DNA of 45,744 nucleotides, taken from a virus. Below, piece by piece: positions 1-42,200 of the stretch. A model generated the notes under the pieces. It worked only from the letters and a program-made list of their open reading frames with translations, did no database searches and was not told the origin of the DNA. Location of the stretch: the IMG/VR virus record IMGVR_UViG_3300005253_002051; one strand, 5' to 3'. Position numbers and translations under genes: made by a program. Every line of letters begins with the position of its first letter. Positions within the stretch are counted from its first letter, which is position 1.

Positions 1-910
1 GAAATCCATCTCGAGTACGAATAACATAGCCTTCTTGCTTGTCAAAGTCCATCTTTTTCTCAAGTTCTCTTACCTTATCGTAATCGTATATTCCCTCATA
101 CAAAACAGGACAAGGAACGATGCCAAGCAACTCAAACCACTCTAATGTTTCGTCCCAGCTAAGACATTCATTTTTATCATTCCACATAGCAAAGCCGTAG
201 AAATATGTATCCAAGTTGTCATAAGCGATACTGTGCTTGGCATACATATTTTCACCATTGATGCGCCAACCCCAAGGAATGTCGCCTTGGAATTGTGCGT
301 GAAATGCTTTAACCCAATTGCGTGATTCATGCCCGCCTGAATTTACAGAACGAGCATGGATATGGTCCTGATAGCAGGTAGTATTCTCGCCATCAAGTTT
401 ATCCATTATGACGATTTCTTTACCTTCAAACTGTTCCATGCTTTTATGAGCACGATCGTCATCATGTAATCCTGGAGACCACGGAACGTGAAATGTGCGT
501 GGATATTTGATGTGGTGTGTAAAATCTTCCAAAAACTTGCCTTGCTTTAAGATCTTCTGGACCGATTCATCTTCGAACAACTCACCACGCAAACGCTGTC
601 CATTATCCAAGATTGGATTTCCCCATTTGTCATACAACTGGTCATTATAAAGATGATCTGGCAGGATTACTTTTTTGATACCGGCAGCATGTCTTACATT
701 TTCAACCGAGATGCTAGTCTCCTCACACCAGATGTGGCATTGTCCGCACACCGAGGCACCATTATTGAGGTAGTATCCGCCGTCTGAAAACAACCTACGC
801 TCCAAGATATGGTGAGCATCTTGAGCGGGTTCAGAGCATAGGACACATTTGTGACCATCACGCTCGAATACGGCGTTCCTGAAATCGTCTCTGGTCAAAA
901 GTTTACACAT
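1..910 (-). CDS. RNA ligase (Rnl2-like KxDG nucleotidyltransferase) with N-terminal HNH-type Cys/His zinc finger; 5' partial, C-terminus runs off the left edge of the window
   Basis: Uninterrupted minus-strand frame from ATG (complement of 908-910) to position 1. It is absent from the ORF track because there is no stop inside the window. Translation begins MCKLLTRDDFRNAVFERDGHKCVLCSEPAQDAHHILERRLFSDGGYYLNNGASVCGQCH (HNH-like). It continues with KEIVIMDKLDGENT (motif I KxDG), FYGFAMWND and EGYVIRTRDG (motif IV-like). RBS AGGAGA lies 8 nt upstream. Confidence 0.6.
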   Translation of the reverse strand, partial: MCKLLTRDDFRNAVFERDGHKCVLCSEPAQDAHHILERRLFSDGGYYLNNGASVCGQCHIWCEETSISVENVRHAAGIKKVILPDHLYNDQLYDKWGNPILDNGQRLRGELFEDESVQKILKQGKFLEDFTHHIKYPRTFHVPWSPGLHDDDRAHKSMEQFEGKEIVIMDKLDGENTTCYQDHIHARSVNSGGHESRNWVKAFHAQFQGDIPWGWRINGENMYAKHSIAYDNLDTYFYGFAMWNDKNECLSWDETLEWFELLGIVPCPVLYEGIYDYDKVRELEKKMDFDKQEGYVIRTRDGF

Positions 911-1025: not shown

Positions 1026-1099
1026 GCGGGTATCGTATAATGGTATTACCTTAGCCTTCCAAGCTAATGACGCCGGTTCGACTCCGACTACCCGTTCCA
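1026..1099 (+). tRNA. tRNA-Gly (anticodon UCC), CCA encoded
   Basis: Cloverleaf by eye. The 7-bp acceptor stem gcgggta/tacccgt starts with a G-U pair. U8 is present. The 5-bp anticodon stem ttagc/gctaa carries the loop cttccaa with TCC at positions 34-36. The T-loop is ttcgact and the discriminator is U. One C-A mismatch sits in the T-stem. Confidence 0.75.
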
Positions 1100-1124: not shown

Positions 1125-1418
1125 ATGTATCGCATCGAAAGTACAATCATAGAAAGACTAAAAGAGCAAGATCTAGGTATTGATGATCTTCTTCGTGGGC
1201 ACGCAAAGACAGAGGACAAAACAATAACAATCTCTGACACAGTGACATATCGTGATGATCCTTATGAAATTGTTACTTTTGAAAATACGGATGAAGCAGT
1301 AGTGGTACAGATGAAAGAATTGGGTTTTGATGAGAAAACCATCAAAGCTATCCAAGAGAATGCTATAAAGCATAATGAATCTATTAAAATTCTCAGGTTT
1401 CTTGAGGAAAAAGAGTAA
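1125..1418 (+). CDS. small protein, member 1 of a tandem 4-gene paralog family (conserved N-terminus MYRIESTIIERLKEQDL..DDLL, divergent C-terminus)
   Basis: ORF track, 97 aa. The first 30 aa are about 70-85% identical to the next three ORFs at both protein and DNA level. Confidence 0.75.
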   Translation: MYRIESTIIERLKEQDLGIDDLLRGHAKTEDKTITISDTVTYRDDPYEIVTFENTDEAVVVQMKELGFDEKTIKAIQENAIKHNESIKILRFLEEKE

Positions 1419-1422
1419 AGCC

Positions 1423-1608
1423 ATGTATCGTATCGAAAGTACAATCGTAGAAGAATTAAAAGAGCAAGATCTTAATGCGGATGATCTTCTACAAGCACAT
1501 ACTAAAAAATACACGAAACAAAAAATTGAAGTAGTAAGGCGGATAGTTGAAGATGAGGAATTTATTACAACGTTTTTTGATAATAAAATTGAAATAGTCA
1601 GGAAGTAA
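1423..1608 (+). CDS. small protein, paralog family member 2 (61 aa)
   Basis: ATG at 1423 gives MYRIESTIVEELKEQDLNADDLLQAH. The 1375 start in the ORF track would overlap the previous gene. Here AAAGAG precedes the ATG in the same arrangement as for its paralogs. Confidence 0.7.
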   Translation: MYRIESTIVEELKEQDLNADDLLQAHTKKYTKQKIEVVRRIVEDEEFITTFFDNKIEIVRK

Positions 1609-1618
1609 AGAGAAGAAA

Positions 1619-1873
1619 ATGACTAGATTTTACGTCGAAAGCACAATCGTAGAAAGACTAAAAGAGCAAGATCTTAACGCGACAGATCTGCTCCAAACAC
1701 ATGCTAATGTTAGAAAACATAAAGTTAAAAAAGTGAAAGAAGATATCTTACATGCAGTTGATAACTTAAATGAAAAAATAAAAAATTTGTCGAATGACGG
1801 AATGACCGACATAGAACTAATCAAACTTCTTGAAGATGCGGGCATGATAGTGAATAGAAATAAAAATGACTAA
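1619..1873 (+). CDS. small protein, paralog family member 3 (84 aa)
   Basis: ORF track. Translation is MTRFYVESTIVERLKEQDLNATDLLQTH. RBS AAGAGAAG is present. Confidence 0.7.
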   Translation: MTRFYVESTIVERLKEQDLNATDLLQTHANVRKHKVKKVKEDILHAVDNLNEKIKNLSNDGMTDIELIKLLEDAGMIVNRNKND

Positions 1874-2126
1874 ATTTTGCGTTGAAGATATACTTATAGA
1901 AGAGTTAAAAGAACAAGGTCTTAATGTGACGGATCTTTTCCAAGCACATGTTAAGAACAATAGAAAACAAACCAAAATAGTCAAGATTACATATTACATA
2001 GATAATGAAACTCAAGAAAAATTAATCGAAGCAGGTATAGATGACATGGAAGAACTCTTAGCGGCGCTTGAGAAGTGTCTTGATGGGTGTGATATCATAA
2101 TTGAAAAAAAAATAAAACAATGCTAA
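1866..2126 (+). CDS. small protein, paralog family member 4 (86 aa)
   Basis: ORF track. Translation is MTKFCVEDILIEELKEQGLNVTDLFQAH. It overlaps the previous stop by 8 nt. Confidence 0.7.
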   Translation: MTKFCVEDILIEELKEQGLNVTDLFQAHVKNNRKQTKIVKITYYIDNETQEKLIEAGIDDMEELLAALEKCLDGCDIIIEKKIKQC

Positions 2127-3047: not shown

Positions 3048-4301
3048 ATGAAAAAAATAAAAACACTATTTTTCTCTCTAGCACTAGCTGGATCGATATT
3101 TTTAGGAACTCCTACATACGCATTTCATAATAACACAGCCGAACCTACTACACAAACACAAGAAGAACTTCGAGTTCTTATGGAAATTATTGGCAGGGTT
3201 CTTAATAACTACGTTGAAGAGCGCGAAAGCCAAGAAGTTATTGACGCCGCAATCGATGGAGTTATTAAGTCACTCGATAAACACTCGAGTTATATGCCTC
3301 CCAAAGCAGCCCAAGATATGATGCAAGAAATGACTGGAAGTTTTTTCGGAATCGGCGCGGAGGTTAATAAACATAAAGAAACCAAATACATCGAAGTCGT
3401 ATCACCAATCGAAGGTTCTCCAGCAGAAGCAGCGGGTATACGCCCCGGAGACTTAATAAAAAGCGTTAACGGCGTTGAGTTGAAAGAACTTAGTCAAAAC
3501 GATGCTATAAAGAACATTCGTGGTCCGAACGGCACTAAAGCAAAAATGGTAATCGTGCGTGGTGAAGAAGAATTAACTATTATCGTAATACGAGCAAAAA
3601 TTCAACTAGTAGTCGTTCGTTCAAGAATGTTAGAGAATAATATAGCGTATGTCAGACTTACTACATTTAATCAAAAATCTTTGGGCAAAACTAAGGATGC
3701 ATTTCGGGAATTAAAAAGACAGTTAGGAGACGAAGAATTTAATGGTATGATTTTGGATCTTCGTAATAATCCTGGCGGTTTATTAGATCAAGCAATTGCT
3801 ATAAGTGATTTATTTCTTGATGCGGGAACGATCGTTACGACGAGAGAACGAGGCGGCGAGATTGCTTATATCGAATTCGCTACTCCAGGTCAAATTATCC
3901 CATCTAAGACGCCAATAATTGTTTTGATTAATGAAGGATCTGCATCTGCTTCTGAAATCGTAGCAGGAACATTACAAGATTTAGACAGAGCTACAATTGT
4001 TGGAGTTAAATCATATGGAAAAGGGTCTGTTCAGTCTATTATTCCACTAAGTAATGGTGGAAAGTTGAGACTCACAGTCGCAAAATACTATACCGCTGGA
4101 GGAACTACGCCGCATGATGTAGGAATCACGCCCGACGTAGTGGTCGAACTTCCAGAAGGATATTGGGATAATATTCCAGTTAGAGAACGTCGTAATCATA
4201 TTGATCCACAATTACAGAAAGCAATTGATATTCTTTCAAATGTGTCTAATGCTCCTGAAATTGATATTCCTGGACCAAATTGCGACGAAAATCCTTGCTA
4301 A
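3048..4301 (+). CDS. ctpA: C-terminal processing (tail-specific) peptidase, S41 family, with signal peptide and PDZ domain
   Basis: Signal peptide MKKIKTLFFSLALAGSIFLGTPTYA. Motifs FGIGAEV (PDZ), DLRNNPGGLLDQAI, NEGSASASEIVAG and KSYGKGSVQS. Confidence 0.85.
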   Translation: MKKIKTLFFSLALAGSIFLGTPTYAFHNNTAEPTTQTQEELRVLMEIIGRVLNNYVEERESQEVIDAAIDGVIKSLDKHSSYMPPKAAQDMMQEMTGSFFGIGAEVNKHKETKYIEVVSPIEGSPAEAAGIRPGDLIKSVNGVELKELSQNDAIKNIRGPNGTKAKMVIVRGEEELTIIVIRAKIQLVVVRSRMLENNIAYVRLTTFNQKSLGKTKDAFRELKRQLGDEEFNGMILDLRNNPGGLLDQAIAISDLFLDAGTIVTTRERGGEIAYIEFATPGQIIPSKTPIIVLINEGSASASEIVAGTLQDLDRATIVGVKSYGKGSVQSIIPLSNGGKLRLTVAKYYTAGGTTPHDVGITPDVVVELPEGYWDNIPVRERRNHIDPQLQKAIDILSNVSNAPEIDIPGPNCDENPC

Positions 4302-5124: not shown

Positions 5125-6276
5125 ATGGCTACATTAACGAAAGATGACGCGGTCAAGGTTGAGATGGAAGTCAGCATGGCCGACAGCAAGGGTGCTTTAG
5201 CAGTCCTAGCGGACAATAAATCACCCGAAGATCAGGCTAAAGTTCTACAACTTATGGCCCAGATTAACATGGATGACACAACTTCTGTCATTTCCTTCGG
5301 TGTCAGCGCCCAGGCAGGCCTATCCGAGCAGAGTAGCGCGATGCTTGCTGGTGTGCGTAATAAGGACACTGGACCAGCCGGTCAAGTTATGAACGGTCTT
5401 ATGGTTCAGATTCGCGGATTGGGTCTAGACGACTTAGATCCGAATGCAAAGCGTGGCTTTATTGCTAAGCTGCTCAAAAAGCTAACACCGCTTCAGAAGT
5501 TCATTCAACAGTATGAAAGTATCGAATCACAGATTGATGCGACGGTTGCTAAGCTCGAAGGCGAGCAGAAGAAGCTCAATCGCGACGTCTTAATGCTTGA
5601 TGGCATGTATAACGAGGCATTAAAGTTCTTCAATGAGCTTGCTTTTTACATTGAAGCGGCTGAGATGAAGCTTGAAGACGTCCGTGCTGTTGATATTCCA
5701 GCACTACAAGCGCACGCGGACAAAACCGACAACATGATGGATCATCAGAAAGCTAAAGATATGGTGGATCGTTCCATGGATTTGGAGCGCAAGATTCACG
5801 ATCTTATGCTTACGCGCACTGTAACTATGCAGATGCTCCCTCAGCTTCGTATGATTCAGGATACAGACAAATCGCTTGTCACCAAGATTGGTTCTTCTAT
5901 CTTGGTAACGATTCCTGTCTGGAAGAATCAGATTGCTATGAGCATTGCTCTTCACAATCAGGCTGGTGCTGCTGCGGTTACTAAAGCAGTTGGCGATGCT
6001 ACAAGTGAGATGATTGAGACGACTGCCAAACAGCTCAGAACTGGTAATGCGGCAGCTCGTAAGGAAGTTGAGCGTGGCGTTATCGACATCGAGAGCATCA
6101 AGCGAGCTAATGAGGACTTGATTGCTACGATTGCTGAATCAATTCAAATCGCCGAGGAAGGTCAGCGTGCTCGTATTGCCGCCAAGGCAGATATGAATCA
6201 GTGTGAGACCGAGCTCAAAGCTGCTCTTCGTGATGCAAAAGGCACTGTAGTAGACGCAGTTGCTGATTCTATCTAG
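5125..6276 (+). CDS. telA: TelA / YaaN / KlaA family toxic-anion-resistance-like protein
   Basis: Family-typical blocks ISFGVSAQAGLSEQSSAMLAGVRNKDTGPAGQVMNGLMVQI, DGMYNEALKFFNELAFYIEAAEMKLED and LMLTRTVTMQMLPQLRMIQD..ILVTIPVWKNQI. Confidence 0.8.
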   Translation: MATLTKDDAVKVEMEVSMADSKGALAVLADNKSPEDQAKVLQLMAQINMDDTTSVISFGVSAQAGLSEQSSAMLAGVRNKDTGPAGQVMNGLMVQIRGLGLDDLDPNAKRGFIAKLLKKLTPLQKFIQQYESIESQIDATVAKLEGEQKKLNRDVLMLDGMYNEALKFFNELAFYIEAAEMKLEDVRAVDIPALQAHADKTDNMMDHQKAKDMVDRSMDLERKIHDLMLTRTVTMQMLPQLRMIQDTDKSLVTKIGSSILVTIPVWKNQIAMSIALHNQAGAAAVTKAVGDATSEMIETTAKQLRTGNAAARKEVERGVIDIESIKRANEDLIATIAESIQIAEEGQRARIAAKADMNQCETELKAALRDAKGTVVDAVADSI

Positions 6277-6303
6277 TTTTAACTTTAGAGAAGGAGAAGG
6301 AAA

Positions 6304-8079
6304 GTGAGAAAGATTTTTTCATTAGCGGCAATTGCTACTACGTTTTCGTTAGTAGCCGCTGCGTTTTCGCCTAACTCAGCAAGTGCTCAGAACTACGTCG
6401 AGATGAAACCTCTCGCTGAAGTTCTTGCAGGTGCCAGTGTTCGTGATTGTCGCGGCGGTGAAGGTCAAAATGTTACCATGATCACATGGGGTGCAGACAT
6501 TTTTACTCTTCATGCTAATGGCGCGTCACTTACTACACAGCCTGGGAGCATTTTTGCCGACGAAGGCTTAACTGTTACGTTGAAGAGAGAGGATGTTTTT
6601 GCAAAGCAGGTTGAAGCATATTTGCGTTGTGACACTCCGTATCTTCGTGGGACACTTGGACAGATTAACTTAGCTAGCGACATTACTGCTGTTAATCCTG
6701 GCACCGAGATGGTTCCGATCATTCAACTTAGCTGGTCGAATGGTGGTGATGCTCTTGTTGCTAAAAAGGGTATCAATAAGCCAGCAGATCTAAAGGGTAA
6801 GACAATCGTGGTTCAGGCTTATGGGCCGCACGTTGCTTATCTTAATAAGGTTCTTGCCGACGCCGGCTTAACGCCGAACGATGTCACTATCGTTTACACC
6901 AAAGACTTAGTTGGTTTCGATGACGATACGACACCTGGAAGCGCGTTCCTCGATGATCCAAATATTGATGCGGCAATGGTTATTATTCCAGATGCGCTAA
7001 AATTAACATCAGGTGGAACTGGCGGAACTGGCGCAGAGAATTCGTTCGACGGCGCAGAGATTATGCTTTCTACCAAATCTGCAAGCCGTGTTATCGCAGA
7101 CGTTTATGTCGTGCGCAAAGACTACCTTGAGGCAAACAGAGATGAAGTTCAGAAGTTTGTTCACGCTCTCTTAGTTGCCGAGGAAAGTCTTAGGAAGCTG
7201 GTTCTAGAGAAAGATACTCGGACAGATGAATACAACGCGATTATTGTTGCCGCTGCCGGTCATCTTCTCGATGCTCCAACTGACATCGACGACACGGAAG
7301 GTATGTATGCCGATGCCGAGACAATTGGGTTTGCTGGCAACAAGAAGTTCTTTGAAAACACTAAGTATCCAAGGAACGTCACTAAGCTTACCAGTGAGAT
7401 CCAGACGGCGTATGTCCAGCAAGGTATGTTGGCTGCTACTGCATCATTAGGTTCTGCTACTTGGAACTATGATGCTCTAAAGGCTGGCATCACTAACACG
7501 ATTGCTAAAACTACGCCTAAGTTCAATGCCGATAAGTTGGCCGCTGCTGTGACCAACATGGCATCAAGCGGCGCCTTAGATGATGGAACATTATTCGAGT
7601 TCCAAATCAACTTTCAGCCGGAACAGGACACATTCTCTGTGGAGATTTATGGAGATGCGTTTAAGCAGGTAGTTGACCTAGCATCTACTTATGCTGGCGC
7701 GATTATTACGGTTGAAGGGCACAGTGATCCAGCAAACTTCATTAAGAAGATGAAGAACGGTGCTGGTGAAGGTATTCTAAATCGTATTAGGCAGCGTGCC
7801 AAGAATCTTAGCGTTAGTCGCTCAACTGCGGTTCGTAAGGCTGTCTTGGACATGGCTGCTGCTTCTGGTGTTCCGATGGACCCAAGTCAGTTTGTGACTA
7901 TTGGTTATGGCATTTCAAACCCGGCTACTGGTGTCTGTCAGAGAAAAGATGAGCCACTTTGCTTAGCTGCTGGACTTCCAAGATATCCGGCAAATAAAGC
8001 GGAATGGCTTAACAACATGCGTGTTGTGTTTAAAATCATTAACGTCGAGGCTGAATCCTCAGCGTTCGAAACATTTTAA
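6304..8079 (+). CDS. secreted protein: periplasmic solute-binding-like N-domain plus C-terminal OmpA/MotB-like peptidoglycan-binding domain
   Basis: Signal peptide MRKIFSLAAIATTFSLVAAAFSPNSASAQ. C-terminus ITVEGHSDPANF..NLSVSRSTAVRKAVL..GYGISNP matches the OmpA_C motif. Confidence 0.7.
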   Translation: MRKIFSLAAIATTFSLVAAAFSPNSASAQNYVEMKPLAEVLAGASVRDCRGGEGQNVTMITWGADIFTLHANGASLTTQPGSIFADEGLTVTLKREDVFAKQVEAYLRCDTPYLRGTLGQINLASDITAVNPGTEMVPIIQLSWSNGGDALVAKKGINKPADLKGKTIVVQAYGPHVAYLNKVLADAGLTPNDVTIVYTKDLVGFDDDTTPGSAFLDDPNIDAAMVIIPDALKLTSGGTGGTGAENSFDGAEIMLSTKSASRVIADVYVVRKDYLEANRDEVQKFVHALLVAEESLRKLVLEKDTRTDEYNAIIVAAAGHLLDAPTDIDDTEGMYADAETIGFAGNKKFFENTKYPRNVTKLTSEIQTAYVQQGMLAATASLGSATWNYDALKAGITNTIAKTTPKFNADKLAAAVTNMASSGALDDGTLFEFQINFQPEQDTFSVEIYGDAFKQVVDLASTYAGAIITVEGHSDPANFIKKMKNGAGEGILNRIRQRAKNLSVSRSTAVRKAVLDMAAASGVPMDPSQFVTIGYGISNPATGVCQRKDEPLCLAAGLPRYPANKAEWLNNMRVVFKIINVEAESSAFETF

Positions 8080-8094
8080 GGGGAGGGTAGTAAC

Positions 8095-8898
8095 ATGTTG
8101 AAACTTAGATTATTTGCTGCTCTTGTCATAGCAGGTGGCGTGCTTGCCGCCTGCGACGACGCCCCAAGCCAGGGCAATGCAATCGGCACTACGAAAACGG
8201 CTACATCGTCGGGAAGTTCTTCTAGTGCTACGACAGTATCTTCTGTCAAGGCCAATGTAGTTTGGCCCGGTATGGCGCCCGAAGATATGAACGTTGCTAT
8301 CGATAGCAATCTAACACGTTCTAACTTTATGGTGGTTTACGATGGTTCGGGTAGCATGGATTACGATTCTTGTGGCTCAAATAGTCCAAACCGTCATGCT
8401 GATGGTGTCATAGCCCTTAAAGAGTTTGTCAAAGCAGTTCCAGACGACGCGAATCTTGGATTGTTTGTTTTCGACGGAAAAGGAATGGCTGTTAGAGTTC
8501 CTCTTGCTGTTGGAAACCGAGACATATTCTTAAGCGAGGTTGATAGCATTAGTATTGGCCAAGGAACTCCATTAAGGTCGGCGATTAAGACTGCCTACTT
8601 TGAACTTAAAAATCGAGCTTATCGTCAGCTTGGTTATGGTAGGTATTCGTTGGTTATTGTCACCGACGGAGAAGCAAACAGCGGCGAAGATCCAACAAGA
8701 ATCGTCAATGATATTATTGATGAGACTCCTGTTGAGGTTCATACCGTTGGGCTTTGCTTTAGTGGTAGACATTCGTTGAATCAGGCAGGTAGGACATTCT
8801 ACACCGACGCCCAAAATCCGGCGCAACTTATCGAAGGATTGAAGAGCGTTCTGGCTGAAACTTCAGTGGATGACGCTGCGGAGTTTAATACGCAGTAA
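8095..8898 (+). CDS. lipoprotein with von Willebrand factor A (vWA) domain
   Basis: Lipobox LAAC after an N-terminal hydrophobic stretch. MIDAS motif DGSGSM, followed by GTPLRSAI and VIVTDGEANSG. Confidence 0.75.
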   Translation: MLKLRLFAALVIAGGVLAACDDAPSQGNAIGTTKTATSSGSSSSATTVSSVKANVVWPGMAPEDMNVAIDSNLTRSNFMVVYDGSGSMDYDSCGSNSPNRHADGVIALKEFVKAVPDDANLGLFVFDGKGMAVRVPLAVGNRDIFLSEVDSISIGQGTPLRSAIKTAYFELKNRAYRQLGYGRYSLVIVTDGEANSGEDPTRIVNDIIDETPVEVHTVGLCFSGRHSLNQAGRTFYTDAQNPAQLIEGLKSVLAETSVDDAAEFNTQ

Positions 8899-8903
8899 AA
8901 GAC

Positions 8904-30585: not shown

Positions 30586-31683
30586 ATGTATAGGAGAAAT
30601 CGTGCGTTTCTAATGCTCGGACTAGCGGGATTGCTGGCTGGCGCCTCGGTGTATATGGCAAGGAATTGGATTCAGGATCAAACCCAATCGCCCGCGTCAG
30701 TGCAAAATGTCAAACAGATCGAAACAACTAAGGTTGTTGTTGCAGCCTCCAAACTCAGTTATGGAATCAAAGTGCAAAGTATGCATCTCCGTATTGTTGA
30801 TTGGCCAGTTAAGGCTGTTCCCGAGGGATCATTTTCAACTGTTGAAGAGATCCTCGGCGAGGGTGATCAACCCGTAAGCCGCGTTGTACTTCGCACTATT
30901 GAAATTAACGAGCCAGTTTTGAAAACCAAGGTTACTGGTTTTGGCGGCCGAGCAAGCCTGTCTACACTTATTGCTCCTGGTATGCGAGCTACTACAATTC
31001 GAGTGAACGATGTCAACGGAGTTGCTGGATTGGTGCTGCCCGGTGATCGTGTTGACATTTTACTTACACGAAGTCGGGATGCTAACGCTAGCAGGCGAAA
31101 CAAGAGTAATCTACAAACTGATATTTTCTTGCAAAATATGAAGGTCCTTGCTGTTGATCAGGATTCTAACGAAGAGAGAAATAAGCCGGCTGTGGTTAAA
31201 GCTGTCACTATTGAAGTGACTCCGACGCAGGCTCAGAAACTAACCCTCGCACAAAAACTCGGTTCTTTGTCGTTGGCGTTGCGTAATGTAAATGCTGTAG
31301 ATGTCGAAGATACGGGTCCTGTTAAGGCGCATGATTTAGGATTTGGTGAGGCAAATTTGGCGCCGACTCCTGTGGTCGAAGCTAGCAAGCCTGCAGAAAC
31401 TGTTAAAGCGCCAATTGTTATTAAGCCAGTAAAAACAGTTTCGCATAGTGTCGTGGTCAAGAAGGCGAAAAGAGCCTATACAGTTAACATTGTGCGCGGC
31501 GTGAAAGCGACCGAATACGAGGTCGAGCAGGAGAAGCCAACTTTTAGTGCTCCGGCGTTTTCTAAGCCTCTTAACTTGATCGCGCCCACGCTAACTATTT
31601 TGACTCCTACGAAACCTACTTTGGGAGTGGTATCTCTTGTGCCATGTAGTAGTGAGTTCACTTCAAACGAAGACTGTATGTAA
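30586..31683 (+). CDS. cpaB: Flp pilus assembly protein CpaB/RcpC-like
   Basis: N-terminal TM RNRAFLMLGLAGLLAGASVYMA is followed by an SAF-like block VVVAASKLSYGIKVQSMHLRIVDWPVKAVPEGSF and an RcpC-like beta domain. RBS GGAGGTG. Confidence 0.65.
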   Translation: MYRRNRAFLMLGLAGLLAGASVYMARNWIQDQTQSPASVQNVKQIETTKVVVAASKLSYGIKVQSMHLRIVDWPVKAVPEGSFSTVEEILGEGDQPVSRVVLRTIEINEPVLKTKVTGFGGRASLSTLIAPGMRATTIRVNDVNGVAGLVLPGDRVDILLTRSRDANASRRNKSNLQTDIFLQNMKVLAVDQDSNEERNKPAVVKAVTIEVTPTQAQKLTLAQKLGSLSLALRNVNAVDVEDTGPVKAHDLGFGEANLAPTPVVEASKPAETVKAPIVIKPVKTVSHSVVVKKAKRAYTVNIVRGVKATEYEVEQEKPTFSAPAFSKPLNLIAPTLTILTPTKPTLGVVSLVPCSSEFTSNEDCM

Positions 31684-35008: not shown

Positions 35009-35082
35009 TCTGATTGACATTAATAGAAAGCGTGTTAGTATACATTATAACAAATTGGTTTAATTTGGCTTGGGAGAGAAAA

Positions 35083-35418
35083 ATGACGGATATCTTAGAG
35101 ATCATTCAGATGTCGGATATTGCTGATCCGATTGAAGAGACCAAAACCAAAATCAAAACAGCCAAGCCAAAAATGTATCGTGTCATTTTTCTAAATGATG
35201 ACTTTACACCAATGGAGTTTGTTACGGAAATTCTACAGCAAATCTTTAGCAAATCGCGCGCTGAAGCAACTGCTATCATGTTGGAAGTTCATAACTTCGG
35301 TAAAAGCATCGTTGGAACGTATACATGCGAGATTGCCGAGCAAAAAGTTTATGAGACGATGGAGAACGCAAAGATTAGTGGTTATCCATTAAGCGCGATA
35401 ACCGAGCCGGCAGATTAA
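35083..35418 (+). CDS. clpS: ATP-dependent Clp protease adaptor protein ClpS
   Basis: MYRVIFLNDDFTPMEFVTEILQQIFSKSRAEATAIMLEVHNFGKSIVGTYTCEIAEQKV aligns with the ClpS core YKVILLNDDYTPMEFV...LAVH..GKA..G.FT.EVAETK. ATG at 35083 after GGGAGAG. The 35014 start in the ORF track is an artefact. Confidence 0.85.
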   Translation: MTDILEIIQMSDIADPIEETKTKIKTAKPKMYRVIFLNDDFTPMEFVTEILQQIFSKSRAEATAIMLEVHNFGKSIVGTYTCEIAEQKVYETMENAKISGYPLSAITEPAD

Positions 35419-39251: not shown

Positions 39252-42200
39252 TTGCTATGGATCGTATATATGCCAGAATTAAAAGAATATATAATTCGCG
39301 TTCAAAACAAATCCGATGTCGACGGCTTAGTCACGGAACTCCAATCTTGGGGTGTCACAGTTGACCACGTTTACAAAAGAGCGATGTTTGGTGTTTGCGC
39401 TAAACTAACTACTCTTCTTGTCGACTGGTATAAAAATGACGCTCGTGTCATTAGTATCGAAGAATCTGCCACATTTGAATCATCGGACCGCCAAGACAAC
39501 GCTCCAGCCCATCTTGATAGAATAGATCAGACAGATCTTCCATTAAGTGGAAGCTTTACTTTTTCTTCTGATGGTACAGGAGTGACAGCGTATATAATCG
39601 ATTCTGGTGCTATCTTCAATCACATAGAATTTGAAGGAAGGATCTCTCCTGTAGATAAAATTGGTTTTCCAGGAACTCCTTTTGATCCATTTTCAAGTGG
39701 TGGCATCGACGAATTTGGACATGGAACACATGTTGCTGGTATTATTGGAAGCAAAACATACGGTGTCACAAAAAAGGTTGTAATGAAAACTGCAAAAGTT
39801 TTCAATCGAACAGGATTTACTACATCAGGAACAATAATTGCCGCAATTGATGCGGTTATCGAAGATTATACTAACGCAGGGAAACCAGCTTCTCTATGCA
39901 ATATGAGTCTTGGTGCTCCGGTAAGTTCAACAGCACCAGAAACTTCTGTGGAAACTGCTGTATTGGCTATGATAAGCGAAGGGATAACGGTAGTAGTTGC
40001 TGCTGGAAATAATAACACCGACGTTGAGAACTTCCAACCAGCAAGATTGCCAGAAGTGATAACTGTTGGTGCGGTAGACGATACTGACTCGAGAGCAGTA
40101 TTTTCTAATTTTGGTAATTCTGAAGGATCTGTATTAAATCCAGGAGGAGAGTTTGGTACTTTTGATGATGCAGCTTCTAATACTGGATCTGCTGTCGATG
40201 TTTTCGCTCCAGGAACAAATATAATTTCCACATGGATTCCTGAACCTGGTGAGACTGACGGGGTTAATACTCTTAGTGGAACAAGTATGGCAAGTCCAGT
40301 TGTTGCTGGTGTTGCTGCGCTCGTTTTAGAAAATGCTCCAAGCGCGCTACCAGCTCTTGTACAAAGTGACATTGTTTCGTTTGCAACATCCGGAAAAGTA
40401 ACAAACATTCCTGGTGGAACAACCGACAAACTAATCTTTTCAATATTTGTTGATCACGTTATTGAATGGATAACTCCTGCTGGCAATGTTGATTTTCCAG
40501 AAGGACAAACACTCAATATACCGTTAGAAGCTATTGGTTTTACTGGAAATGCTGTTGGGTTTTCGTTAGTTTCTGGAACGTTGCCGCCCGGCATAACTTT
40601 AAATGGCGTAACCGGACTACTGTCTGGTGTGGCAGCCGCAGTAACAGTAGACACGATAAGCACGTTTACAATACGGGCATCAGATACTGTTGTTTTTGAG
40701 AACCGAACATTTAGTATTACAATCGTGGATAACCCTTTGCCGCCGGTTTGGCAGACATCACCCAATTTAGGATCAATCGAAGAAGGGGGCACGATTGCTA
40801 TTCAGCTTACAGCGGTAAGTCTAAATGATGCTCCAATTGTATATAGTGGTTCGTTGCCTCATGGATGGTTTGTTAGCACAACTGGATTTGTTACAGGAAT
40901 AGCGCCGCTAGTCGTTAATGTTGATTTTGAAACCAATTTTACTGTAACAGCTGATGATGGAATTCTTAGCACTCCGCGGACATTTCTTATCACGATCGCA
41001 CAAAATGACGATTTCTTACCCCCAGCCGAACCAAGATGGATAACTCCTGAGGGCTCCATTGGCGAGGTAATAGACACAAATGTATTTAATTTTCAATTAG
41101 AAGCAATTGATGAAAATTTTGATCCTCTGCCATTAAAATATTTTCTAACGTTACAAACAGCAGATGGAAGCACTTTTGGGCCGGTAGGTGAATTGCCACC
41201 AGGATTGCTGTTGGGTGAAGATACGGGATTGATTTCTGGAACATTTTTCTCTAATACACTCGATGAAGTGTTGGATTTTACTTTCGCTGTTTTTCTTTCT
41301 GATGGGGCGAATATTGTTGCTCGAACATTTACTATTCGTACTAGAAAACAAGCAGAAAATTTACCTCCCGAATGGGTAACACCGCAAGGAAGTTTAGGTT
41401 TAGTAGTAGCCGGAAGCTTTGCTACATTTACTGTGGCGGCGACTGATCCTGATAGCGGCCCCAATGACTTGACTTATTTTTTAAGTTCGGGCAGTCTTCC
41501 ACCAGGATTTAGTATAGATGCCAACTCAGGAGAAATTTCTGGAGTTGCAGTGTTGGTTGCCTCTGATGAGTTTTTCCCATTCATCTTGGGCGTTACTGAT
41601 GGAGAAGATACTGTTGTAAGATCGTTTTCTCTTTTAGTAGAAAAACTAAATTCAAGACCCGAGTGGGTAACGCCAGAAGGATTGTTATTACGTATAAACG
41701 AAGGACAACTTGCTGTAATTACATTAGAAGCAACTGATCCGGAGGATGATCAATTAACATTTAGTATCGTAAGTGGCGTTCTTCCGCCTGACTTGATTCT
41801 AAATCCAAATACCGGATCGATTTCTGGTTCTATATCAGACGTAACTGAAGATACTACGTTTTCATTTACGGTGCGCGTGGACGATAGTCTAAGTAACAGT
41901 CTTGGAGAAGAGTTATTCGCGGACAGAGATTTTTTTATTGAAGTTATTGATGGAATATTAAACACTAACAGACCACCAGAGTGGATTACTCCTGAAGGTG
42001 TTTTAACACAAGCAAACGAAGGACAAGCATATTTCTTCCAACTTGAGGCAACTGATCCTGACAACGGTCCGCAATTGCTTAATTACACACTAAATGCTGG
42101 CAGTCTTCCAAATGGTTTAGCATTAAATGCTATCAGTGGTGTTATATCTGGGTTTCCAAATGATCCAGACACTATGGATACTGTTTCTATTTTTATTGTA

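Follow-up and report, generated by a model that had tools for sequence, protein, structure and literature searches.

What do adjacent small phage genes do that begin with the same sequence and end in different ones? This question is raised by an array near the left end of the virus record IMGVR_UViG_3300005253_002051, a 45.7-kb contig from the marine sediment metagenome LCGC14, which was analysed over its whole length of 45,744 nucleotides (nt) and is referred to here as the window. The array consists of four consecutive small open reading frames (ORFs) of 97, 61, 84 and 86 amino acids (aa), all on the plus strand and sharing an N-terminal module of approximately 28 aa, as the original prediction, made from the bare sequence, had described (Table 1). 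Our data show that the shared segment is a protein-coding module under purifying selection, not a regulatory DNA repeat, and that the breakpoints of cassette swaps lie inside this module. We propose, at a probability of roughly 0.45, that the locus is a hypervariable array coding for small modular proteins, which would act as target-binding inhibitors or decoys, with the shared module, termed handle in the following, as a common docking or assembly element.

A protein-coding module shared by four cassette genes

A repeat search of the window returned a single direct-repeat family, comprising four copies of 99 nt at positions 1109, 1407, 1609 and 1856, each beginning approximately 16 nt 5' of an ATG. 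The 26-nt degenerate core RTAGAARRNYTAAAAGARCAAGRTCT has four matches in the window, all in register in the four ORFs, compared to 0.01 matches expected, and 0/100 shuffled windows reached four matches; there is no fifth copy of the module in the 45.7 kb. M1, E5, E10, L12, K13, E14, Q15, L17, D21, L22 and H26 are invariant in the protein alignment of the four. The DNA identity of the modules had been given as 75-85%; we measured 61-82% for the pairwise comparisons within the window (codons 5-28), an identity that results from amino-acid constraint together with AT-rich codon usage.

For the selection test we used 28 distinct module DNAs from 11 genomes. The pooled ratio of nonsynonymous to synonymous differences per site (pN/pS) is 0.48, with pS being 0.476, and the summed entropy is highest at the third codon position (19.8, compared to 15.0 at position 1 and 13.9 at position 2). 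The codons of the invariant residues E10, L12, K13, E14, L17, L22 and L23 vary synonymously, L12 being encoded by CTA or TTA, E14 by GAG or GAA and both L17 and L23 by CTT, CTC, CTA or CTG. RNAalifold returned no consensus structure for the modules (energy 0, no better than column shuffles), promoter-like sites occur at chance level (11 compared to 9.5 in shuffles), internal terminators are absent from the array (0) and the sequences upstream of the modules are unconserved between cassettes, showing 30-57% identity. The pN/pS value, the synonymous codons at invariant residues and the lack of an RNA fold show that the shared segment codes for protein, and the regulatory repeat named at the outset as the finding that would overturn the prediction is not what we observe.

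The first 8 nt of ORF4 lie within the end of ORF3, and the first 7 nt of the downstream zinc (Zn)-finger gene within that of ORF4; judged by these overlaps, the cassette genes look translationally coupled. An AAAGAG-type ribosome-binding site, originally assigned to each of the ORFs, is present in front of ORF2 and ORF3, while ORF1 and ORF4 have only A-rich leaders. The public annotation starts ORF2 at the ATG at position 1375 (77 aa, P0010). P0009 and homologues of 61-64 aa (P0019, P0021 and P0025-27) support the ATG at position 1423 instead, and we assign the start to 1423 on the basis of the 61-aa homologues.

Array composition and cassette exchange among relatives

The search for the N-terminal motif that had been suggested along with the original prediction was run and yielded a lineage-restricted family of small proteins. 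A word-indexed protein search returned 44 family proteins, and an exhaustive HMMER search of 1.84 billion representative proteins returned 30 clusters at E ≤ 1e-3, with the proteins being 45-100 aa long and the module being N-terminal, except for one fusion with a Zn-ribbon module and one spurious 933-aa repeat match. The fusion, P0069 (94 aa, metagenomic), is the sole family member with the module away from the N-terminus: an upstream CxxC Zn-ribbon ORF is fused in frame to the handle at residues 61-90, and this protein probably arose by recombination or deletion. All members for which a source record or contig context exists originate from uncultured metagenomes, and all contigs examined are syntenic. 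Searches of 50,697 phage genomes gave no protein relative by tblastn and matched only the tRNA by blastn, a scan of IMG/VR with the family alignment gave no relatives, a scan of JGI metagenomes gave only six loci and a genome walk via a window protein gained no new sequence.

In ten related genomes the array occupies a fixed locus between the HNH-RNA ligase gene and the genes for the Zn-finger protein, a 105-aa protein and an S41 protease, and comprises two to four members. Denoting the members by the class of their C-terminal tail, the array reads A-B-C-D in the window, E-C-D' in contig L001, E-C-G in L003 (the contig ending after G), E-F-D in L004, E-A-C-D' in L005, C-D in L008, L012 and L013, E-D' in L009, F-E-D' in L010, E-A-E-D' in L014 and C-D' in L015. 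Copy number thus varies among related genomes, the point that was to be checked, and composition differs as well. The last gene is D or D' in 9/9 arrays whose 3' end is on the contig.

The high nucleotide identity had been taken as a sign of recent duplication or gene conversion. Recent duplication is not supported, since pS is approximately 0.48 and the module identity within a genome (71.4%) shows no excess over that between genomes (71.4-73.1%). General concerted evolution of the modules, i.e. their homogenisation, is rejected by the same equality of identity within and between genomes. What holds in modified form is recombination or conversion, whose breakpoints fall inside the module. In the comparison of the window with L001, two near-identical genomes, the upstream sequences are unrelated; identity is approximately 99% between codon ~5 of the C module and codon 12 of the D module, is lost thereafter (D compared to D') and returns to approximately 99% with the last four codons, where the Zn-finger gene starts. 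The right-hand breakpoint of the swap lies at this conserved 3' junction. For class F genes of L007 and L010, the flank is 100% and the C-terminus 97% identical, compared to only 74% for the module. According to these two mosaics, cassettes are exchanged via homology in the handle-coding DNA and at the conserved gene junctions; since each cassette starts with the same ~85 nt and ends at such a junction, recombination would be able to swap them. The tRNA end, the spacer and the first module remain joined even where genes have been inserted upstream, as in L014.

The data support that the locus is a phage accessory-gene hot spot, a 'hyperplastic' region, because a helicase and Eco57I-like/N6-methyltransferase gene set is inserted there in two relatives. 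This set lies between the RNA ligase gene and the array (L005 2303-6627 and L014 2879-7266) and resembles a restriction-modification or defence system.

C-terminal tails and possible roles of the handle

At least eight classes of tails (A, B, C, D, D', E, F and G) are distinguished, in addition to singletons. The original prediction held that the C-termini of the window proteins diverge completely. This applies to B and C, for which hhalign detected no relation to any other class, and does not apply to A and D, which are linked through D': hhalign gives 97.6% for D' against D and 90% for A against D' (E 1.7e-6), whereas A and D compared directly do not match (probability 0.3), their kinship being transitive. 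Apart from the pairs A and D' and D and D', the classes are mutually unrelated. Within classes, the C-terminal pN/pS ranges from 0.24 to 0.72 (0.24 for class A), which supports the C-termini as real domains that purifying selection maintains within every class. The window classes A-D are acidic, with isoelectric points (pI) of 4.9-6.1. Pfam and PHROGs searches of the four ORFs and 20 further members returned nothing apart from Portal_T4 and phrog_213 for class F and P0059. Neither collection revealed a domain related to toxins, immunity, secretion or known anti-defence, and sequence-profile searches of the PDB with two family alignments returned only designed helical bundles and noise.

Folding the shared module, as had been suggested, yielded a two-helix handle in the AlphaFold2 models of classes C and D, at low confidence in the latter. 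The class D model (predicted local distance difference test score, pLDDT, 64) has handle helices at residues 6-16 and 21-32 with pLDDT ~50-57 and, separate from the handle, a beta-alpha-alpha-beta C-terminal domain with pLDDT 72-82; Foldseek of the class D model against PDB and BFVD found no match at E < 0.1. The class C model (pLDDT 78) is all-helical (residues 3-16, 21-59 and 64-73), with the second handle helix running into a 39-residue helix. Such a hairpin, predicted to be small, amphipathic and poorly defined by itself, would fit a docking or oligomerisation element.

A hint comes from the tail of class F, which is absent from the window and comprises at least 14 clusters of stand-alone ORFs of 82-94 aa. 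These tails match the Pfam family Portal_T4 (PF07230) with E 6e-18, and phrog_213, and show 64% identity to the portal of Vibrio jumbo phage 2.275.O and 58% to that of XacN1. The 53-aa tail aligns to residues 257-309 of T4 gp20, in which residues 255-278 form the stem helix alpha5 and the clip extends from residue 279 onward, with the clip tip (N291, M292, R295 and K296) touching the terminase gp17 (PMC4493910); these tip positions are included in the alignment. A full dodecamer-forming portal with wing, stem, clip and crown is ruled out for class F, as its 82-94 aa cover only positions 178-236 of the 433 of the Portal_T4 profile. No full-length portal was found to share even 5-residue words with the class F tail, and the handle shows no significant homology to the part of the portal in front of the stem helix. 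A second portal-like fragment is nearly never found in cultured phages (2,179 matching places in 2,177 records). By its sequence, class F is a natural mini-protein composed of the handle and a portal stem/clip segment. A 24-aa peptide of gp20, residues 288-311, binds gp17 and inhibits packaging, as cited in PMC4493910. The class F tail likewise includes the clip tip; the T4 peptide, in contrast, is synthetic, while class F occurs naturally as a separate gene with the handle fused to it, its binding to terminase being putative. By analogy, this portal mimicry suggests that the tails of the family may be small interaction surfaces, i.e. binders or inhibitors.

This leads to a model according to which a two-helix N-terminal handle of ~28 aa would be joined to one of at least eight interchangeable C-terminal domains, which would act as small target-binding 'warheads', i.e. 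as inhibitors, decoys or regulators of differing host or rival-phage proteins. The handle would lend all members one common property, most likely docking to a common partner or self-assembly, the genes would be co-expressed as a translationally coupled operon 3' of tRNA-Gly, and homologous recombination in the handle-coding DNA would add, delete and swap cassettes between co-infecting relatives. We infer a role of the tails as binders or inhibitors, of the handle as docking or assembly element and of the whole in conflict; the function may still be an anti-defence, host-takeover or polymorphic-effector one, as the original prediction had supposed. Polymorphic toxin and effector loci resemble the array in their conserved N-terminus, their swappable C-termini and recombination at the conserved part. 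They differ in being cellular secretion loci, whereas the proteins here are phage-encoded and 60-100 aa in size, have no secretion or toxin domains or immunity genes, and have further cassettes and the Zn-finger gene as neighbours.

Several points weigh against this model. The partners, targets and activities of the four window proteins are hypothetical; Pfam, PHROGs, PDB sequence searches and Foldseek give nothing for classes A-D; fold and oligomeric state of the handle are predicted with low confidence; and class F, not being encoded in the window, bears on classes A-D by analogy only. Furthermore, an N-terminal leader shared by unrelated small proteins has one well-documented meaning in T4-type phages, namely capsid targeting, which by this analogy is a live rival.

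According to this rival, which we consider unlikely overall, the module would be a capsid-targeting propeptide resembling the capsid-targeting sequence (CTS) of T4: after loading on the prohead scaffold core, the proteins would be cut by a gp21-type protease, either at I-x-E (residues 8-10), at L-x-E (residues 12-14) or at both, and would enter the capsid along with the DNA, to be injected as a first line of counter-defence like T4 IPI*. The CTS of the T4 internal proteins IPII and IPIII is the closest analogue of the module, although we do not file the genes as internal proteins. In T4, ipIII and ipII are adjacent and have an identical 10-aa N-terminus (MKTYQEFIAE) and 5' DNA with unrelated remainders, and the T-even internal proteins are a diverse, fast-evolving counter-defence set having only the CTS in common (PMC3012670); the array matches this picture in consisting of tandem, polymorphic small genes of a T4-type phage that share the 5' end and an N-terminal peptide and are otherwise unrelated. 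Residues 8 and 10 of the T4 CTS govern processing, and gp21 cleaves after L/I-x-E (PMC9026906). In the same register from Met1, I-x-E of the T4 CTS corresponds to [LIV]-x-E at residues 8-10 in 57/60 family members, followed by L-x-E at residues 12-14 in 55/60, a motif that is common in the Glu/Leu-rich helices of these proteins. The lineage is T4-like as well, judged by a Phage_30_3 homologue and by the portal-like tail being nearest to jumbo T4-type portals, and the jumbo phages with the best-matching portals carry gp21/S77-type proteases next to the portal gene and also encode a scaffold core.

The details of the module and its tails speak against capsid targeting. The module comprises 28 aa compared to 10 in T4, and its conservation extends to residue ~28 and thereby beyond both candidate cleavage sites, with no consistent cleavage motif at its end. 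Similarity to the T4 CTS is not significant, only M1, I8 and E10 coinciding, and a tblastn search of the phage collection with a class D query carrying a consensus module gave one noise match (E = 4) and none to a T-even ip gene. Mature IPII and IPIII are basic (pI 9.3 and 9.5), whereas classes A-D have a pI of ~5. In the mature parts [LI]-x-E is enriched instead of depleted, with 113 observed compared to 83 expected occurrences. T4-type late promoters (TATAAATA) are absent from the surroundings of the array and number 2 in the entire window, compared to 3.9 expected by chance, and a prohead protease of the lineage was not found among the best 120 homologues listed with the jumbo-phage protease profile. 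Finally, a portal mimic that binds terminase would act more sensibly in the cytoplasm. Encapsidation of the proteins is hypothetical here.

A more far-reaching possibility, which we regard as distinctly unlikely, is that the handle would be a new lineage-specific platform displaying mimics of the interaction surfaces of other proteins. Class F might then inhibit the packaging motor of rival phages or serve as a decoy of the portal for portal-sensing immune receptors (Avs4-type), with classes A-D acting analogously.

It is improbable that the proteins are small DNA- or RNA-binding regulators. In this case the handle, read as helix, G/D-L-N-x-T turn and helix, would serve all members for binding nucleic acids or for dimerisation, with the tails adjusting specificity or bringing in partners. 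Small regulators are common among early phage ORFs, a recurring 'helix, G, hydrophobic, x-x, helix' pattern is seen in the module as well as in several of the tails (LKEQ-GL-NATDLL, LIEA-GI-DDMEEL and LLEDA-GM), and the predicted beta-alpha-alpha core of A, D and D' recalls ribbon-helix-helix proteins. The class D model closes with a second strand, though, which ribbon-helix-helix proteins do not, and neither a helix-turn-helix, ribbon-helix-helix, SAP nor HeH family was matched by 15 members even at E of 10, nor in PDB profiles; a ribbon-helix-helix identity of A, D and D' finds no support, as no ribbon-helix-helix or helix-turn-helix profile matches. The proteins being acidic and the portal-mimic class being ill-suited to nucleic-acid binding also argue against regulators.

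That selection acts on the repeat chiefly as nucleic acid, for recombination, translation initiation or regulation, with the peptide being incidental, is largely refuted as main explanation and very improbable. Such a repeat would be a coding analogue of the promoter-early stem-loop (PeSL) cassettes, which are mobile regulatory cassettes of the hyperplastic regions of T4-type phages, in which recombination between the repeated motifs shuffles ORFans (Arbiol et al. 2010, PMC2839356). As with PeSL, short repeats lie by ORFans in a variable region and recombination between them results in insertions, deletions and replacements among close phages; ORF replacement between close relatives via recombination at repeats is seen here, the swaps break inside the repeat, and the repeat begins upstream of the ATG. 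In contrast to PeSL, the repeat lies inside the coding sequence, is constrained at the protein level and has no promoter or stem-loop terminator signature. The pN/pS of 0.48, the third positions being most variable, the differing codons for invariant amino acids, the missing conserved RNA structure, the chance level of promoter-like sites without any terminators and the dissimilar sequences upstream of the cassettes all contradict it.

It is scarcely credible that the ORFs are recently duplicated ORFans drifting apart and having no distinct functions. Their small size, lack of annotation and variable presence among relatives would fit this reading, but purifying selection acts on the orthologues that every class has in several genomes, a pS of ~0.48 indicates old modules, identity within genomes shows no excess, and the unrelated tails of B, C, E, F and G exclude simple duplication as origin.

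Genomic setting and meaning of the array

Table 1. Features of the array locus in the window, with positions of class F genes in related contigs
Feature	Position	Strand	Remarks
HNH-RNA ligase gene	1..910	-	truncated by window start; left boundary of the variable locus; phrog_24030, E 1e-129
tRNA-Gly(UCC)	1026..1099	+	25 nt 5' of first cassette
Cassette gene 1, class A, 97 aa	1125..1418	+	module 1125-1208 (MYRIESTIIERLKEQDLGIDDLLRGHAK); orthologues P0011, P0014 and P0015 of P0002
Cassette gene 2, class B, 61 aa	1423..1608	+	module 1423-1506; short C-terminal tail ...RRIVEDEEFITTFFDNKIEIVRK
Cassette gene 3, class C, 84 aa	1619..1873	+	module 1619-1708 (MT + RFYVESTIVERLKEQDLNATDLLQTHAN)
Cassette gene 4, class D, 86 aa	1866..2126	+	module 1866-1955; predicted C-terminal beta-alpha-alpha-beta domain
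CxxC Zn-finger protein, 74 aa	2120..2344	+	DnaJ cysteine-rich-like, under Pfam cut-off; ATG overlaps last codons of cassette 4
Class F gene, L004	3654-3905		
Class F gene, L007	119-370		
Class F gene, L010	564-815		

The HNH-RNA ligase gene is the conserved neighbour of the array in most of the related contigs. It encodes an HNH endonuclease domain fused to an RNA ligase and is divergent from the adjoining phage tRNA-Gly(UCC), an arrangement suggesting tRNA repair. The best relatives of the ligase are found in jumbo phages, i.e. Salicola phage SCTP-2 (440 kb), Ralstonia phage RsoM2USA and the Caulobacter phage CcrBL9 group. The closest homologue, at 64% identity, is that of SCTP-2, which has no comparable array beside its ligase gene. 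On the other side of the array, the Zn-finger gene is present in the syntenic contigs L001, L002, L012, L013 and L015, and in L006, which duplicates the window array, and is missing from L004, L005 and L014. Where it is lacking (L004, L005, L007 and L014 compared), the last cassette ORF enters the start of the next gene, thereby gaining a C-terminal extension '...DNWMGRR'.

Downstream of the array, the Zn-finger gene is followed by genes for small membrane proteins, an S41/PDZ protease, TelA, a vWA protein, a protein with a vault-shoulder domain and others. The gene content at 5125-10516 and 17380-19956 of the window is odd for a phage, comprising a cluster of TelA, NMT1-like, vWA and OmpA-domain genes and a gene for an 858-aa protein that carries major-vault-protein shoulder and repeat domains. 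Further cell-like genes are located on the same strand at 35014-35418, 39252-44264, 23172-23933 and 30586-31683 and encode a ClpS-like adaptor, a 1,670-aa S8 subtilase with eight He_PIG Ig repeats, a histidine kinase core and an RcpC/CpaB pilus-assembly homologue. The tRNAs for Leu (23935) and Met (28882) lie singly among them. Outside the window, contig L001 has another tandem duplication at 3346-4173 on the minus strand, in which a unit of a 60-aa membrane protein and a 59-aa protein occurs twice consecutively. The T4 30.3-like protein encoded in the window (the Phage_30_3 homologue) is common to approximately 1,500 T4-type and large myophages, and a syntenic 142-kb contig also encodes the ribosomal protein S21, a class II aminoacyl-tRNA-synthetase-like gene (PF00152) and NifU. 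Judged by its gene content, we assign the element to the T4 superfamily, as an uncultured jumbo phage from marine sediment, with its structural genes presumably lying outside the sequence reached.

As a summary, the family is lineage-restricted and its members are small proteins with an N-terminal module. For the four window genes, the practical value of the analysis lies in a defined family, class boundaries and start codons. Beyond these genes, the array shows modular gene shuffling via homology inside a coding region, with breakpoints at base level. If the handle is a delivery or docking signal, it would join many unannotatable ORFans into one functional system of uncultured jumbo phages and would provide a simple sequence tag for finding further members. 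To our knowledge, class F would be the first natural equivalent of the synthetic gp20 peptide blocking T4 packaging, and it makes the hypothesis of terminase inhibition or immune decoy testable.

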